Below, in pieces: positions 10,500 through 56,467 of a stretch of 64,000 nt of DNA. The DNA lies in assembly GCF_003334815.1 (NCBI RefSeq), contig NZ_QOWO01000002.1; one strand, 5' to 3'. The translations under genes and the position numbers were made by a program. The notes beneath the pieces were generated by a model. The model was not told the DNA's origin, did no database searches, and was given only the letters and a program-made list of their open reading frames with translations. The DNA is from Escherichia coli. GTDB lineage: Bacteria; Pseudomonadota; Gammaproteobacteria; Enterobacterales; Enterobacteriaceae. Position 1 is the stretch's first letter, and each line of letters starts with the position of its first letter.

Positions 10500-11633
10500 G
10501 TGAATGACGCTATCCCTCGCCCGCAGGCGAAAACCCGTAAGGCGCTGACGCCGCTATTAGAAATCCGCAACCTGACCAAATCCTACGATGGTCAACATGC
10601 GGTGGATGATGTCAGCCTGACCATCTACAAAGGTGAAATCTTCGCGCTGCTGGGCGCATCCGGCTGTGGCAAGTCCACGCTGCTGCGTATGCTGGCAGGT
10701 TTCGAACAACCTTCTGCCGGACAGATAATGCTTGATGGCGTCGATTTGTCACAGGTTCCGCCTTACCTGCGCCCCATCAATATGATGTTTCAGTCTTACG
10801 CGCTGTTTCCGCATATGACCGTGGAACAGAACATCGCTTTTGGCCTGAAACAGGACAAACTACCGAAAGCGGAAATTGCCAGCCGGGTCAATGAGATGCT
10901 CGGCCTGGTGCATATGCAGGAGTTCGCCAAACGCAAACCGCATCAGCTTTCCGGTGGTCAGCGACAACGTGTGGCCCTGGCCCGAAGCCTTGCGAAGCGC
11001 CCGAAACTATTACTGCTCGATGAGCCGATGGGCGCGCTGGATAAAAAGCTGCGTGACCGGATGCAGCTTGAAGTGGTGGATATTCTGGAGCGCGTCGGTG
11101 TGACTTGTGTGATGGTCACCCACGATCAGGAAGAGGCGATGACCATGGCGGGGCGCATCGCCATTATGAATCGTGGGAAATTTGTCCAGATTGGCGAACC
11201 GGAAGAGATCTACGAGCATCCGACTACCCGCTATAGCGCCGAATTTATTGGCTCGGTAAACGTCTTTGAAGGCGTACTCAAAGAGCGTCAGGAAGATGGC
11301 CTGGTGCTTGATTCGCCGGGGCTGGTGCATCCACTGAAAGTCGACGCGGATGCCTCGGTGGTCGATAACGTGCCGGTACATGTGGCGCTGCGCCCGGAAA
11401 AAATCATGCTTTGCGAAGAGCCGCCCGCCAATGGTTGTAACTTCGCGGTGGGGGAGGTGATACACATTGCCTATCTCGGCGATCTTTCGGTGTATCACGT
11501 TCGTCTGAAAAGTGGGCAGATGATTAGCGCCCAGCTACAAAACGCCCATCGTCATCGTAAAGGGTTACCGACCTGGGGCGACGAAGTGCGTTTGTGCTGG
11601 GAAGTGGACAGCTGTGTGGTGCTGACGGTTTAA
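10500..11633 (+). CDS. potG: Putrescine ABC transporter ATP-binding protein PotG
   Basis: GTG start giving MNDAIPRP...; Walker A GASGCGKST, ABC signature LSGGQRQR, Walker B LLLLDEP. Confidence 0.9.
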   Translation: MNDAIPRPQAKTRKALTPLLEIRNLTKSYDGQHAVDDVSLTIYKGEIFALLGASGCGKSTLLRMLAGFEQPSAGQIMLDGVDLSQVPPYLRPINMMFQSYALFPHMTVEQNIAFGLKQDKLPKAEIASRVNEMLGLVHMQEFAKRKPHQLSGGQRQRVALARSLAKRPKLLLLDEPMGALDKKLRDRMQLEVVDILERVGVTCVMVTHDQEEAMTMAGRIAIMNRGKFVQIGEPEEIYEHPTTRYSAEFIGSVNVFEGVLKERQEDGLVLDSPGLVHPLKVDADASVVDNVPVHVALRPEKIMLCEEPPANGCNFAVGEVIHIAYLGDLSVYHVRLKSGQMISAQLQNAHRHRKGLPTWGDEVRLCWEVDSCVVLTV

Positions 11634-11642
11634 GGAGCAAAG

Positions 11643-12596
11643 ATGAGTACACTTGAACCTGCTGCCCAGTCGAAACCGCCGGGCGGATTTAAGCTGTGGT
11701 TGTCGCAGCTGCAAATGAAGCATGGGCGCAAACTGGTCATTGCGTTGCCATATATCTGGTTGATCTTGCTGTTTCTGCTGCCATTTCTGATTGTCTTTAA
11801 AATAAGCCTGGCGGAGATGGCGCGCGCTATTCCACCTTATACCGAACTGATGGAGTGGGCTGACGGGCAACTGTCCATCACTCTTAATCTCGGTAATTTT
11901 CTGCAACTGACCGACGATCCGCTCTATTTCGATGCTTATCTCCAGTCGCTACAGGTGGCTGCGATTTCGACATTTTGCTGTTTACTGATCGGCTATCCGC
12001 TGGCGTGGGCGGTGGCGCACAGTAAGCCTTCGACCCGTAATATTTTATTACTACTGGTGATCCTGCCGTCGTGGACCTCGTTTCTGATCCGCGTTTATGC
12101 CTGGATGGGAATATTAAAAAACAACGGTGTGCTGAATAATTTTCTGCTGTGGCTGGGGGTTATCGATCAACCGCTGACCATTCTGCATACCAATCTGGCC
12201 GTTTATATCGGCATTGTTTACGCTTACGTGCCGTTTATGGTACTGCCGATTTATACCGCGTTGATTCGTATTGATTATTCGCTGGTGGAAGCAGCGCTGG
12301 ATCTCGGTGCACGACCGCTGAAAACGTTCTTTACTGTGATCGTGCCGCTGACTAAAGGTGGGATTATTGCCGGATCGATGCTGGTGTTTATCCCGGCTGT
12401 GGGCGAGTTTGTGATCCCGGAACTGCTCGGTGGCCCGGACAGCATCATGATCGGGCGCGTGCTATGGCAAGAGTTTTTCAATAACCGCGACTGGCCGGTG
12501 GCCTCGGCGGTAGCGATCATCATGTTGCTGCTGCTAATTGTGCCGATAATGTGGTTCCACAAACACCAGCAAAAAAGCGTGGGAGAACACGGATGA
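11643..12596 (+). CDS. potH: Putrescine ABC transporter permease PotH
   Basis: 317-aa polytopic membrane ORF; operon position. Confidence 0.95.
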   Translation: MSTLEPAAQSKPPGGFKLWLSQLQMKHGRKLVIALPYIWLILLFLLPFLIVFKISLAEMARAIPPYTELMEWADGQLSITLNLGNFLQLTDDPLYFDAYLQSLQVAAISTFCCLLIGYPLAWAVAHSKPSTRNILLLLVILPSWTSFLIRVYAWMGILKNNGVLNNFLLWLGVIDQPLTILHTNLAVYIGIVYAYVPFMVLPIYTALIRIDYSLVEAALDLGARPLKTFFTVIVPLTKGGIIAGSMLVFIPAVGEFVIPELLGGPDSIMIGRVLWQEFFNNRDWPVASAVAIIMLLLLIVPIMWFHKHQQKSVGEHG

Positions 12597-13438
12597 ATAA
12601 TTTACCGGTAGTTCGTTCGCCCTGGCGGATTGTGATTTTGCTGCTGGGCTTTACCTTTCTCTACGCGCCAATGCTGATGCTGGTTATCTATTCGTTTAAC
12701 AGCTCGAAGCTGGTGACGGTGTGGGCCGGCTGGTCAACGCGCTGGTATGGTGAGTTATTGCGCGATGACGCGATGATGAGTGCGGTTGGTTTAAGTCTGA
12801 CAATTGCGGCCTGTGCGGCGACGGCGGCGGCGATCCTCGGAACTATTGCGGCGGTGGTGCTGGTGCGCTTTGGCAGGTTTCGCGGATCAAATGGCTTTGC
12901 CTTTATGATCACCGCGCCGCTGGTAATGCCAGATGTCATCACGGGCTTGTCGCTGTTGTTATTATTCGTCGCGCTTGCTCATGCCATTGGCTGGCCTGCG
13001 GACCGCGGTATGCTCACCATCTGGCTGGCGCATGTCACTTTTTGTACGGCTTATGTGGCGGTCGTTATTTCTTCAAGATTGCGGGAACTGGATCGCTCGA
13101 TAGAAGAAGCAGCGATGGATCTCGGTGCGACGCCGCTGAAAGTGTTTTTCGTCATTACGCTACCGATGATCATGCCCGCGATCATTTCTGGCTGGTTACT
13201 GGCTTTTACTTTGTCGCTTGATGATCTGGTGATCGCCAGCTTTGTTTCCGGGCCGGGAGCCACCACGTTACCGATGCTGGTCTTTTCCAGCGTGCGGATG
13301 GGGGTGAATCCGGAAATCAACGCCCTGGCAACATTGATCCTCGGCGCGGTCGGAATTGTCGGATTTATCGCCTGGTATCTGATGGCTCGCGCAGAAAAAC
13401 AGCGGATACGCGACATCCAGCGTGCAAGACGTGGCTGA
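12593..13438 (+). CDS. potI: Putrescine ABC transporter permease PotI
   Basis: 281-aa ORF from ATG 12593, overlapping potH stop (ATGA); membrane protein. Confidence 0.9.
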   Translation: MNNLPVVRSPWRIVILLLGFTFLYAPMLMLVIYSFNSSKLVTVWAGWSTRWYGELLRDDAMMSAVGLSLTIAACAATAAAILGTIAAVVLVRFGRFRGSNGFAFMITAPLVMPDVITGLSLLLLFVALAHAIGWPADRGMLTIWLAHVTFCTAYVAVVISSRLRELDRSIEEAAMDLGATPLKVFFVITLPMIMPAIISGWLLAFTLSLDDLVIASFVSGPGATTLPMLVFSSVRMGVNPEINALATLILGAVGIVGFIAWYLMARAEKQRIRDIQRARRG

Positions 13439-15204: not shown

Positions 15205-15302
<98 letters not shown>

Positions 15303-16255: not shown

Positions 16256-16346
16256 ATGTAGGCCGGATAAGGCGTCCCCGCCGCATCCGGCACAGGCACC
16301 GTGCTGATGTCTGATGCGACGCTGGCGCGTCTTATCAGACCTACAA
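16256..16346. repeat. REP/BIME element pair
   Basis: GTAGGCCGGATAAGGCGTCCCCGCCGCATCCGGCAC ... GATGCGACGCTGGCGCGTCTTATCAGACCTAC. Confidence 0.8.
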
Positions 16347-16374: not shown

Positions 16375-17043
16375 TTAATTTCGCCGTTCGAATGCCAGCG
16401 CTTTGCGCTCGATCAGACGCATCATCAGCGTCAGCAGGCCGTTAACGACCAGGTAAATAATCCCTGCCGCACCGAACACCATTACATCGTAGGTGCGTCC
16501 GTACAACAACTGGCTGTATCCCATCACTTCCATCAGCGTAATGGTGTATGCCAGAGAGGTACTTTTGAATACCAGCACCACTTCGTTGGAATAAGAAGAG
16601 AGCGAGCGTTTAAAGGCATACGGCAGCAGGATCGCCAGCGTATCTTTTTTGCTCATTCCCAGGGCGCTACAGGACTGCCACTGACCTTCCGGGATCGCAC
16701 GAATTGCACCGTAAAACAGCTGCGTGGTATACGCCGCACTATTCAGCGACAACGCAATCAGCGCACATAACCACGGTTCTGACAACAAATGCCACAGTGC
16801 CGGATACTCCTGCAAAGTCGGAAACTGGCCCGGCCCGTAATAAATCAGGAAGATCTGCACCAGCAGCGGCGTACCGGTAAACAGCGTGATATAACCCCGC
16901 ACCAGCCACACCAGCACCGGCGTTTTCAGCGTCAGGATGATGGTAAAAATCAATGCCAGAATCAGTGCCACAATCAGCGAGGCAACGGTTAGCGTCAGGC
17001 TGGTGTGTAGCCCTTTCATCAGTTCGGGTAAATACTCAAACAT
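16375..17043 (-). CDS. artM: Arginine ABC transporter permease ArtM
   Basis: 222-aa membrane ORF; start overlaps artQ stop. Confidence 0.95.
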   Translation of the reverse strand: MFEYLPELMKGLHTSLTLTVASLIVALILALIFTIILTLKTPVLVWLVRGYITLFTGTPLLVQIFLIYYGPGQFPTLQEYPALWHLLSEPWLCALIALSLNSAAYTTQLFYGAIRAIPEGQWQSCSALGMSKKDTLAILLPYAFKRSLSSYSNEVVLVFKSTSLAYTITLMEVMGYSQLLYGRTYDVMVFGAAGIIYLVVNGLLTLMMRLIERKALAFERRN

Positions 17044-38742: not shown

Positions 38743-38772
38743 ATGCAGGCATAAAAATTGGGGGAGGTGCCT

Positions 38773-41049
38773 ATGCTCAATCAAGAACTGGAACTCAGTT
38801 TAAATATGGCTTTCGCCAGAGCGCGCGAGCACCGTCATGAGTTTATGACCGTCGAGCACTTGTTACTGGCGCTGCTCAGTAACCCATCTGCCCGGGAGGC
38901 GCTGGAAGCGTGTTCTGTGGATTTGGTTGCGCTCCGTCAGGAACTGGAAGCCTTTATTGAACAAACCACACCCGTTCTGCCTGCCAGTGAAGAGGAGCGC
39001 GACACACAGCCGACGCTGAGTTTTCAGCGTGTACTGCAACGTGCGGTCTTCCATGTCCAGTCCTCCGGTCGCAATGAGGTTACCGGTGCAAACGTTCTGG
39101 TCGCTATCTTTAGCGAACAGGAGTCGCAGGCGGCATATCTGTTGCGTAAACATGAAGTCAGCCGTCTCGATGTGGTGAACTTTATCTCTCATGGCACGCG
39201 TAAAGACGAGCCGACACAGTCTTCTGATCCTGGCAGCCAGCCAAACAGCGAAGAACAAGCTGGTGGGGAGGAACGTATGGAGAATTTCACGACGAACCTG
39301 AATCAGCTTGCGCGCGTGGGCGGAATCGACCCACTGATTGGTCGTGAGAAGGAGCTGGAGCGTGCTATTCAGGTTCTCTGCCGTCGCCGTAAAAACAACC
39401 CGCTGCTGGTGGGGGAATCTGGTGTCGGTAAAACCGCGATTGCGGAAGGTCTTGCCTGGCGAATTGTTCAGGGCGATGTGCCGGAAGTGATGGCTGACTG
39501 TACGATTTACTCTCTCGATATCGGTTCTCTGTTAGCGGGCACAAAATATCGCGGCGACTTTGAAAAACGTTTTAAAGCGTTGCTCAAGCAGCTGGAGCAG
39601 GACACTAACAGCATCCTGTTTATTGATGAGATCCACACCATTATCGGTGCGGGTGCAGCGTCTGGTGGTCAGGTCGATGCGGCTAACCTAATCAAACCGT
39701 TGCTCTCCAGCGGTAAAATTCGTGTAATTGGTTCGACAACCTATCAGGAGTTCAGCAACATTTTCGAGAAAGACCGTGCTCTGGCGCGTCGCTTCCAGAA
39801 AATTGATATTACTGAACCGTCGATCGAAGAAACTGTTCAAATCATCAATGGCCTGAAACCGAAGTATGAAGCGCACCACGACGTGCGTTATACCGCAAAA
39901 GCGGTGCGTGCGGCGGTAGAGCTGGCGGTGAAATACATTAACGATCGTCATCTGCCGGATAAAGCCATTGATGTTATCGACGAAGCGGGCGCTCGCGCAC
40001 GCCTGATGCCGGTAAGCAAACGCAAGAAAACCGTTAATGTGGCGGATATTGAGTCCGTGGTGGCCCGTATTGCACGCATTCCAGAGAAGAGTGTTTCTCA
40101 GAGTGATCGTGATACCCTGAAAAACCTCGGCGATCGCTTGAAAATGCTGGTCTTCGGTCAGGATAAAGCCATTGAGGCGCTGACTGAAGCCATTAAGATG
40201 GCGCGTGCAGGTTTAGGTCACGAACATAAACCGGTTGGTTCGTTCCTGTTTGCCGGCCCTACCGGGGTCGGGAAAACAGAGGTGACGGTACAGCTTTCGA
40301 AAGCTTTGGGCATTGAGCTTCTGCGCTTTGATATGTCCGAGTATATGGAACGCCATACCGTCAGCCGTCTTATTGGTGCGCCTCCGGGATACGTTGGTTT
40401 TGATCAGGGCGGTTTGCTGACTGATGCGGTCATCAAGCATCCACATGCGGTGCTGCTGCTGGACGAAATCGAGAAAGCGCACCCGGACGTGTTCAATATT
40501 CTGTTGCAGGTGATGGATAACGGTACGCTGACCGATAACAACGGACGCAAAGCAGACTTCCGTAACGTGGTGCTGGTGATGACCACCAACGCCGGGGTAC
40601 GGGAAACTGAGCGCAAATCCATTGGTCTTATCCACCAGGATAACAGCACCGATGCGATGGAAGAGATCAAGAAGATCTTTACACCGGAATTCCGTAACCG
40701 TCTCGACAACATTATCTGGTTTGATCATCTGTCAACCGACGTGATCCATCAGGTGGTGGATAAATTCATCGTCGAGTTGCAGGTTCAGCTGGATCAGAAA
40801 GGTGTTTCTCTGGAAGTGAGCCAGGAAGCGCGTAACTGGCTGGCCGAGAAAGGTTACGACCGGGCAATGGGCGCTCGTCCGATGGCGCGTGTCATCCAGG
40901 ACAACCTGAAAAAACCGCTCGCCAACGAACTGCTGTTTGGTTCGCTGGTGGACGGCGGTCAGGTCACCGTCGCGCTGGATAAAGAGAAAAATGAGCTGAC
41001 TTACGGATTCCAGAGTGCACAAAAGCACAAGGCGGAAGCAGCGCATTAA
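38773..41049 (+). CDS. clpA: ATP-dependent Clp protease ATPase subunit ClpA
   Basis: 758-aa ORF from ATG 38773 ([14 protein letters not shown]...); two AAA+ modules ([16 protein letters not shown]). Confidence 0.95.
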
Positions 41050-41073
41050 TCTGATTGTTAGGTAGGTTGGTCA

Positions 41074-41111
41074 AGTCCGTAATCTCGAAAGAGGTTACGG
41101 ACTTTTTGTTT
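41074..41111 (+). terminator. Intrinsic terminator of clpA
   Basis: Hairpin GTCCGTAA...TTACGGAC followed by TTTTTGTTT. Confidence 0.7.
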
Positions 41112-41261
41112 ATGGGGTGGAGGAGGTTCAGACCCTTTTTTTAATGATGATGGTAAGTTGTTGATAATTAGTGCTGCGGGAAGGTAAGGATAAAAAAGGG
41201 TGCTGCAGGAGAATGGGATGGTTTTGCTTTATTAACAACGGGCTAAACGTGTAGTATTTGA

Positions 41262-41349
41262 GTTCACTGCCGTACAGGCAGCTTAGAAATTCACAGGTAA
41301 CATACTCCACCCGCCCACCATGTTCACTGCCGTACAGACAGATAAAATG
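41262..41349 (+). CRISPR. Orphan type I-F CRISPR remnant: 2 repeats, 1 spacer, no cas genes
   Basis: 28-nt repeat GTTCACTGCCGTACAGGCAGCTTAGAAA (41262-41289), 32-nt spacer TTCACAGGTAACATACTCCACCCGCCCACCAT (41290-41321), degenerate terminal repeat GTTCACTGCCGTACAGACAGATAAAATG (41322-41349). Confidence 0.8.
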
Positions 41350-41350
41350 C

Positions 41351-41380
41351 GAAAAAAAAGCTCGCACTTTCGTACGAGCT
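41351..41380 (-). terminator. Intrinsic terminator downstream of serW
   Basis: On minus strand hairpin AGCTCG...CGAGCT followed by TTTTTTTTC. Confidence 0.65.
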
Positions 41381-41392
41381 CTTCTTTAAATA

Positions 41393-41480
41393 TGGCGGTG
41401 AGGGGGGGATTCGAACCCCCGATACGTTGCCGTATACACACTTTCCAGGCGTGCTCCTTCAGCCACTCGGACACCTCACC
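41393..41480 (-). tRNA. serW: tRNA-Ser (anticodon GGA)
   Basis: Reverse complement GGTGAGGTGTCCGAGTGGCTGAAGGAGCACGCCTGGAAAGTGTGTATACGGCAACGTATCGGGGGTTCGAATCCCCCCCTCACCGCCA; long variable arm, encoded CCA. Confidence 0.95.
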
Positions 41481-41666
41481 AAATTGTTTTGCTACCAAAC
41501 CTCATGGGTGGCAACGGGGCGCTACTATAGGGAGTTGGAGTAAAACGGTCAAGAAGAATTTTAATGATAATTATTGTTTGCTCATACTGTAAACAAGTTG
41601 TGCAGTATATCTACATCGAGACAAGTTACGGACTTATACTTCCAAAGTACTTCATACATATCACAA

Positions 41667-41692
41667 AATAAAAAGGCCGGTTAAACCGACCT
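41667..41692 (-). terminator. Intrinsic terminator of infA
   Basis: On minus strand hairpin GGTCGGTT-TAA-ACCGGCC followed by TTTTTATTTT. Confidence 0.55.
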
Positions 41693-41733: not shown

Positions 41734-41955
<222 letters not shown>

Positions 41956-56229: not shown

Positions 56230-56249
56230 TACCCAATTTTTCTGAATCT

Positions 56250-56277
56250 AAAAAGCGCCTGCGGGCGCTTTTTTTGT
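56250..56277 (+). terminator. Intrinsic terminator of serS
   Basis: Hairpin AGCGCCTGCGGGCGCT followed by TTTTTTTG. Confidence 0.75.
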
Positions 56278-56283
56278 CTCCCT

Positions 56284-56297
56284 TTGATACCGAACAA
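56284..56297 (+). promoter_or_regulatory. FNR binding site of the dmsABC promoter
   Basis: TTGATACCGAACAA matches TTGAT-N4-ATCAA at 9/10 positions upstream of anaerobically expressed dmsA. Confidence 0.55.
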
Positions 56298-56467
56298 TAA
56301 TTACTCCTCACTTACACGTAATACTACTTTCGAGTGAAAATCTACCTATCTCTTTGATTTTCAAATTATTCGATGTATACAAGCCTATATAGCGAACTGC
56401 TATAGAAATAATTACACAATACGGTTTGTTACTGGAATCAATCGTGAGCAAGCTTGAGTGAGCCATT

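Follow-up and report, generated by a model that had tools for sequence, protein, structure and literature searches.

The interval between clpA and infA is where type I-F CRISPR-Cas loci sit in Escherichia coli, and cas-less strains carry a single orphan array in it. Diez-Villasenor is said to have described this orphan array in 2010 and to have outlined a scenario in which a self-targeting cas1 spacer drove the loss of the cas operon. According to Touchon and Rocha (2010; PMC2886076), who named it CRISPR3, the array is present in all non-B2 E. coli, its spacers match only Cas1, Cas3 and Csy2 of the Ypest (I-F) system, and all cas-less CRISPR3 arrays hold anti-cas spacers. These authors proposed that the array bars invasion by cognate cas systems, and argued that recombination between repeats should readily delete spacers. 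Almendros 2014 (PMC3903273) refers to the locus as CRISPR-III and to the single array of cas-less strains as CRISPR4.1-2. In Almendros 2016, as reviewed by members of that group in PMC8616872 and PMC5972030, native orphan arrays were constitutively expressed, interfered with plasmids carrying the full cas-F set and triggered primed acquisition of plasmid spacers.

Here, we followed up a preliminary description, made from the sequence alone, of a short repeat-spacer unit in a 64,000-nt stretch of E. coli DNA (hereafter the window). This feature, at 41262-41349, is the CRISPR4.1-2 orphan I-F array, the CRISPR3 of Touchon and Rocha, and is already known. We consider it very probable that, as the orphan I-F array of a cas-F-less E. 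coli, it acts as a barrier to I-F re-acquisition. Computed here were its identity, its orthology to CRISPR4.1, the lack of cas genes in the window and the cas1f target beside its PAM; its function is taken from published native arrays. The preliminary description had stated that orphan arrays at this site are reported to carry anti-cas spacers, which the published record bears out (PMC2886076, PMC8616872, PMC5972030), and the spacer studied here is likewise directed against cas1f.

The array and its surroundings

The array and the features around it are the following (positions are those of the window).

38773..41049, + strand: clpA, the upstream core gene (ORF 38758-41049)
41073-41104, + strand: clpA intrinsic terminator, a hairpin of 14 pairs followed by the T-run TTTGTTTATG (terminator scan)
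41105-41261, + strand: CRISPR4.1-type leader, 157 nt, AT-rich
41262-41289, + strand: repeat 1, a perfect 28-nt type I-F (CRISPR4) repeat, GTTCACTGCCGTACAGGCAGCTTAGAAA
41290-41321, + strand: 32-nt anti-cas1 spacer, TTCACAGGTAACATACTCCACCCGCCCACCAT
41322-41349, + strand: repeat 2, a degenerate terminal repeat, GTTCACTGCCGTACAGACAGATAAAATG
41352-41387, - strand: serW terminator hairpin (terminator scan), two bases past repeat 2
41393-41480, - strand: serW, tRNA-Ser(GGA) (ARAGORN and the Rfam tRNA model)
41734-41952, - strand: infA (ORF list)

The array spans 88 nt and consists of repeat 1, one spacer and repeat 2; a direct-repeat search places the two repeat copies 60 nt apart, start to start, and 60 is also the periodicity of I-F arrays (PMC3506596). 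Repeat 1 matches the Rfam family CRISPR-DR4 (RF01317), which corresponds to Kunin repeat cluster 4, over its full length (1-28/28, + strand) with 50.1 bits against a gathering threshold of 35 and with E = 8.5e-9 for a search of the whole window; the repeat family is represented in Rfam. Moreover, it is identical to the repeats of strains UM146, 503440 and E69, whose true arrays adjoin cas1f and comprise 16-36 repeats. Repeat 2 scores only 20 bits with the same model, below gathering, and is therefore regarded as degenerate, a sub-threshold score being just what is expected of a degenerate terminal repeat. Within the 64-kb window, the 20-nt core of the repeat is found at two places only, one matching perfectly and one with a single mismatch, and two core matches were seen in none of 100 shuffles of the window. 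The presence of only these two adjacent copies in the window speaks against the possibility, raised in the preliminary description, that they are part of a different dispersed repeat.

Repeat 1 contains the Cas6f hairpin CUGCC-GUACA-GGCAG, with a 5-bp stem, a 5-nt loop and a predicted folding energy of -8.6 kcal/mol, as well as the 8-nt 5' handle CUUAGAAA. The last eight bases of repeat 2 differ, reading ATAAAATG instead of CTTAGAAA, and a second change lies within the hairpin stem, where a G-to-A substitution at repeat position 17 (G17A) turns the central C-G pair of the 5-bp stem into a C-A mismatch; the predicted hairpin of repeat 2 has -1.4 kcal/mol, versus -8.6 for repeat 1. Cas6f requires the hairpin of the terminal repeat to generate the crRNA 3' end, and it is the first 20 nt of repeat 2 that would make this 3' hairpin. 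Judging from the predicted folds, G17A may lower the crRNA yield. The 3' end ATAAAATG is common to all six sampled cas-less arrays, the window included, and G17A is found in the window, ST2350 and YZ22PE106 and not in O157-like or B2 lineages. The initial reading of two I-F repeats around a 32-nt spacer (41290-41321), the second repeat being degenerate at its 3' end, thus holds by both the RF01317 matches and the sequence itself, with the refinement that repeat 2 is altered in its stem as well.

Upstream of the array, the clpA start at 38773 was inferred from the 2,277-nt clpA annotated in UM146, to whose clpS-clpA region the window is 98% identical. The clpA terminator, which folds at -21.9 kcal/mol (z = -6.0), sets clpA transcription apart from the CRISPR leader. 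This leader was correctly singled out as AT-rich, with a GC content of 40% compared to 52% for the window, and is presumed to hold the array promoter and the spacer-integration signals; on its + strand, a simple consensus promoter scan detected no strong sigma-70 consensus at threshold. Its sequence agrees with that of the cas-positive strains at 149 of 158 positions (UM146) and 157 of 159 positions (503440, whose CRISPR4.1 leader differs from it at only 2 of the 159 aligned positions), and the ~150 nt adjoining the repeat scarcely vary among 7 lineages. Downstream, the array, lying between clpA and serW, does end beside the serW terminator, as first noted, with the terminator (41352-41387) two bases away. 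This terminator folds at -21.3 kcal/mol on the - strand and at -9.4 kcal/mol on the + strand, and the latter form, although a weaker hairpin, may also end the array transcript, as far as folding models go. Elsewhere in the window, four sRNA families score above gathering, namely RybB (3486-3564, - strand), STnc130 (56243-56377, - strand), the REP-derived naRNA4 (16261-16341, + strand) and ES036 (15239-15281, + strand). Sub-threshold Rfam matches to sX4, Thr_leader and Plastid-psbl-rps4 were dismissed, as they are driven by the tRNA and the terminator.

A tblastn search of the 64-kb window with the six I-F Cas proteins found none of the genes cas1f, cas3f, csy1, csy2, csy3 and cas6f, in agreement with the preliminary description; the only notable match was to the spacer, whose translation is an 11-residue Cas1f peptide. 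Since the window holds no I-F cas gene, the array is an orphan. It is also missing from the annotation, just as the preliminary description had noted that the ORF track misses it: among the matches listed, RefSeq has nothing over it in the exact-match genomes, and RefSeq/PGAP thus leaves this two-repeat array unannotated in those exact-match genomes that were inspected.

Relation to cas-positive loci

That the clpA-infA interval is the site of I-F loci in other E. coli was confirmed in UM146 and 503440. In UM146, the interval contains, in this order, CRISPR4.1, cas1f-cas3f-csy1-csy2-csy3-cas6f, serW and CRISPR4.2, and strain 503440 shares this layout and additionally carries an IS100, which sits between CRISPR4.2 and serW (1569-3370 of the extracted locus). 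The csy2 gene of UM146 has an internal stop, and its I-F system may be defective. UM146 also carries a ~10-kb satellite-/PICI-like island (2915-12680 of the extracted locus) that is missing from the window; it is inserted between yljB and clpS, at a junction corresponding to near window 38337, and encodes an integrase, an HTH regulator, an Icd-like protein, a primase, an SSB, a major capsid protein, a head decoration protein and a small terminase.

The window and UM146 are collinear over the stretch running from clpS to the end of repeat 1, leader included (98% identity), and this collinearity ends at base 41290; homology restarts at 41354, just ahead of the serW terminator. Because the leader and repeat 1 are collinear with CRISPR4.1 and homology stops at 41290, the array is the orthologue of CRISPR4.1 minus everything downstream. 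On the other side of serW, ~100 nt past the tRNA gene are homologous to UM146 and are followed by 89 nt (41581-41669) in place of the 679-nt CRISPR4.2 leader/array, before homology resumes at 41670 ahead of infA. By comparison with UM146, therefore, the CRISPR4.2 array between serW and infA and most of its leader are absent from the window. At 41616-41635, the sequence is similar to the 3' arm of the clpA terminator (17/20), with an E-value at chance level. Direct repeats linking the leader and the clpA terminator to the serW-infA region were considered as possible leader duplicates and rejected, being short and non-collinear, with chance-level E-values.

The spacer, its target and other cas-less lineages

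The preliminary description had considered the single spacer worth matching. Searches against I-F cas genes, phages and plasmids gave cas1f as its sole target, flanked by the correct PAM, and no meaningful phage or plasmid match. The 32-mer matches 2,579 E. coli genomes: it is identical in 1,433, at the array locus and unannotated, and has one mismatch in 888, mainly as the O157-type variant TTCACTGG..., whereas the remaining ~258 matches are mainly inside cas1f. In UM146, the protospacer is located on the antisense strand of cas1f (16990-17021 of the extracted locus), matches the spacer at 30/32 positions, with mismatches at positions 4 and 6, and has 5'-CC directly upstream; the E. coli I-F PAM is CC on the spacer-identical strand, which equals GG on the target strand (PMC3506596). 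The protospacer is preceded by taCC in UM146, where it begins with TTCGCTGG, by taCC in 503440 as well, and by tgCC in E69, where it begins with TTCACTGG. Altogether, cas1f was found in 241 cas-positive genomes, 202 of which have the two-mismatch allele (30/32) and 39 a three-mismatch allele (29/32), every time with the match on the antisense strand and adjoining CC. When the exact spacer in its cas1f context was used as a 76-nt query, a perfect protospacer was found in none of these 241 cas1f genes from 5,426 complete E. coli genomes, the best match being 74/76.

The closest cas1f allele came from a pattern scan (TTCNCNGG...) of one genome per species, covering ~100,000 species, which returned two loci, the cas1f gene of E. 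coli E69 and a metagenome-assembled contig with the same E. coli array. In E69 (CP089930.1; cas1f at 69-1058, - strand, and protospacer at 924-955, in coordinates of the extracted locus), the protospacer, CC followed by TTCACTGGTAACATACTCCACCCGCCCACCAT, agrees with the window spacer at 31/32 positions and differs at position 6 only. Among the cas1f alleles found, this one alone has a protospacer identical to the O157-type spacer, and none of the 5,426 complete RefSeq E. coli genomes contains the E69-type allele. The E69 Cas1f is 94% identical to that of UM146 and its gene lies beside an array of the same repeat with at least 36 repeats; the E69 I-F system is a divergent one. With these two loci only, the scan gave no evidence for a spacer originating from another genus. 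A phage or plasmid origin was likewise rejected, as blastn (word size 11, E up to 10) returned no meaningful match, giving only 17 nt in phage Lw1, attributable to chance, and 22/25 in a cas1f on a Vitreoscilla plasmid. The metagenome-assembled contig, assigned to 'Proteobacteria bacterium B43T3L14' (JADFJT010000085.1), contains at 850-1400 the clpA 3' end, the leader, the array and most of serW, is near-identical to the window there and diverges at the serW 5' end (about 1338). It is probably E. coli contamination or a chimera, or else an island junction at serW.

In the Csy complex, the Cas7f thumbs block pairing at every sixth position (bioRxiv 10.1101/453720). As the only mismatch to E69 falls on the non-pairing position 6, recognition of the E69-type cas1f allele by the window spacer should be essentially that of a full match. 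The common E. coli cas1f allele combines a mismatch at seed position 4 with one at the non-pairing position 6, and direct interference against it would probably be weakened by the position-4 seed mismatch, with priming as the main route. In the I-F system of E. coli, targets mismatched in the seed can still prime adaptation (PMC4678832). The codon at the variant site is AGT (Ser) in the O157-type spacer and E69, synonymous with AGC in UM146, and TGT in the window spacer. From this, we infer that the O157-type form probably represents the spacer as first acquired, and that the K-12-type form has a later, targeting-silent substitution at position 6.

Of the 5,426 complete E. coli genomes, 1,399, K-12-type laboratory strains among them, carry exactly this 88-nt sequence, and variants at 95-99% identity are present in 923 further genomes, the 88-nt unit being found at a median of 1 and a maximum of 2 places per genome. 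The 651-nt array region is matched in all genomes (5,426/5,426), with K-12-type laboratory strains at 100%. A few genomes have two array places and one plasmid record holds an array copy; these plasmid or duplicate copies could be captured chromosomal segments or assembly duplications. In some strains, including BLR(DE3), the clpA-infA interval has an extra segment annotated as 'RtT sRNA', which suggests a REP/RtT-like element inserted beside the array or serW.

Comparison of the locus across E. coli genomes, for which the arrays of five other cas-less strains were set beside that of the window, revealed different spacers, all of them against cas1f or cas3f. An O157-like strain carries the one-mismatch variant of the window spacer. 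In an ST131-like B2 strain, the spacer is directed against cas3f (1 mismatch, CC PAM); Nissle (EcN) has a different anti-cas3f spacer (3 mismatches) and ST2350 a third one (1 mismatch, CC PAM). YZ22PE106 has three, of which two are directed against cas3f and the other is a deleted, 28-nt version of the anti-cas1f spacer. The seven spacers counted for these six arrays have cas1f or cas3f as their best match, with 1-5 mismatches, and a CC PAM is present at 5/7 of the protospacers.

Proposed function and comparison with known systems

By analogy with the published native arrays, the array would be transcribed constitutively and would remain inert while I-F Cas proteins are absent. Should an I-F cas operon arrive horizontally, its own Cas6f would process the resident transcript, cutting after the hairpins of repeats 1 and 2 and releasing a crRNA that consists of the CUUAGAAA handle, the 32-nt spacer and the 3' hairpin GUUCACUGCCGUACAGACAG. 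The incoming Csy complex would load this crRNA and bind the cas1f protospacer beside its CC PAM on the incoming DNA, which Cas2/3 would then degrade, and imperfect matches would also prime the uptake of further spacers from the invading DNA. In sum, this would amount to a barrier against regaining a working I-F system.

Two readings that dispense with CRISPR function altogether deserve practically no credence. The unit might be no CRISPR at all and instead a REP/BIME or other repeat, or a part of the serW terminator, the clpA 3' UTR or a small ORF, given that there are two copies only, the second of them degenerate, and that mechanical ORFs overlap the region (41128-41367, - strand; 41258-41389 and 41320-41592, + strand). 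Yet repeat 1 fits RF01317 over its full length and is identical to the repeats of true arrays adjoining cas1f, the window has no third copy, the 88-nt unit occurs once per genome (median), and RefSeq has no CDS at this place among the genomes listed. The 32-nt interval is swapped wholesale between lineages for unrelated cas-derived sequences, with the repeats constant, something that neither a conserved ORF nor a conserved structural element would permit. The same exchange bears on the equally improbable reading of the unit as a Cas-independent regulatory RNA, either antisense to the serW terminator or 3' trailer or acting in trans on a host gene. The array is convergent with serW, read-through into the terminator is possible (+ strand hairpin -9.4 kcal/mol) and a sub-threshold Rfam match to sX4 overlaps the region (27.6 bits versus a gathering threshold of 70). 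However, no near-match of the spacer was found in E. coli genomes beyond the arrays and cas1f, and, because unrelated spacers occupy the same place in different lineages, no conserved antisense or trans target is possible.

Loss of function is a more serious consideration. One version holds that the array is a neutral relic, left after a self-targeting cas1 spacer drove the cas loss or after the system decayed, and now functionless and eroding. Two derived changes relative to the O157-type array, namely G17A and the spacer substitution, would fit this, as would the mismatch in the seed to all cas1f genes of the 5,426 complete genomes, the lack of a consensus promoter in the leader (+ strand scan) and the reduction of the array to the minimum of one spacer. 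We nevertheless hold it improbable. The spacer substitution hit position 6, the sole non-pairing site of the seed region, just as purifying selection on targeting would allow; the spacers kept in independent cas-less lineages all target cas1f or cas3f despite their easy deletion by repeat recombination; the leader shows the same degree of conservation as in cas-positive strains; and native orphan arrays interfere and prime in published experiments, as summarised in PMC8616872 and PMC5972030. A narrower version confines the decay to the K-12-type allele, carried by about a quarter of sequenced E. coli, in which G17A would block Cas6f processing of the sole crRNA and leave a functionally decayed anti-cas array. 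This we regard as rather doubtful, if somewhat less so. Were it true, the K-12-type lineages would have lost the barrier and become receptive to I-F acquisition, whereas O157-type strains, with their intact hairpin and a spacer equal to the E69 protospacer, would keep it, amounting to a polymorphism in 'immunity against immunity'. A barrier array, still able to act on incoming I-F systems, remains our preferred reading.

As a discovery, the array carries little weight, since the locus, its distribution, the cas-matching spacers and the mechanism have been in print since 2010 and the experiment since 2016. Mildly new, at the level of sequence comparison, would be G17A, the position-6 substitution relative to the O157-type spacer, and the O157-type protospacer being exact in E69 only and in 0/5,426 complete genomes. 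Its broader interest is that an array kept to destroy incoming CRISPR-Cas systems would exemplify selection against adaptive immunity in a species dependent on horizontal gene transfer.

The cas-positive I-F systems of E. coli share the repeat, leader, chromosomal site and PAM with the window array. They have six cas genes between a long CRISPR4.1 and CRISPR4.2, and their spacers mostly match plasmids, whereas the window lacks the cas operon, CRISPR4.2 and most of its leader, and its sole spacer is directed against cas1f. Isolated I-F arrays of Pseudomonas aeruginosa (PMC13142298) are likewise without adjacent cas genes and usable by cognate Cas proteins in trans; those arrays, however, coexist with a resident cas operon and target mobile elements, whereas the window array targets the incoming cas operon and would act only once that operon has entered the cell. 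The closest match is CRISPR4.1-2/CRISPR3, with the anti-cas array of Almendros 2016 (Nat Microbiol 1:16081), which occupies the same clpA-infA site beside serW. It shares with the window the 28-nt type 4 repeat, the 32-nt spacer, the conserved leader and the modified terminal repeat, as well as the lack of cas-F genes and a spacer matching the Ypest/I-F cas1. Between this array and that of the window there is no substantive difference, the allele details (G17A and the position-6 substitution) being minor and perhaps already in print.
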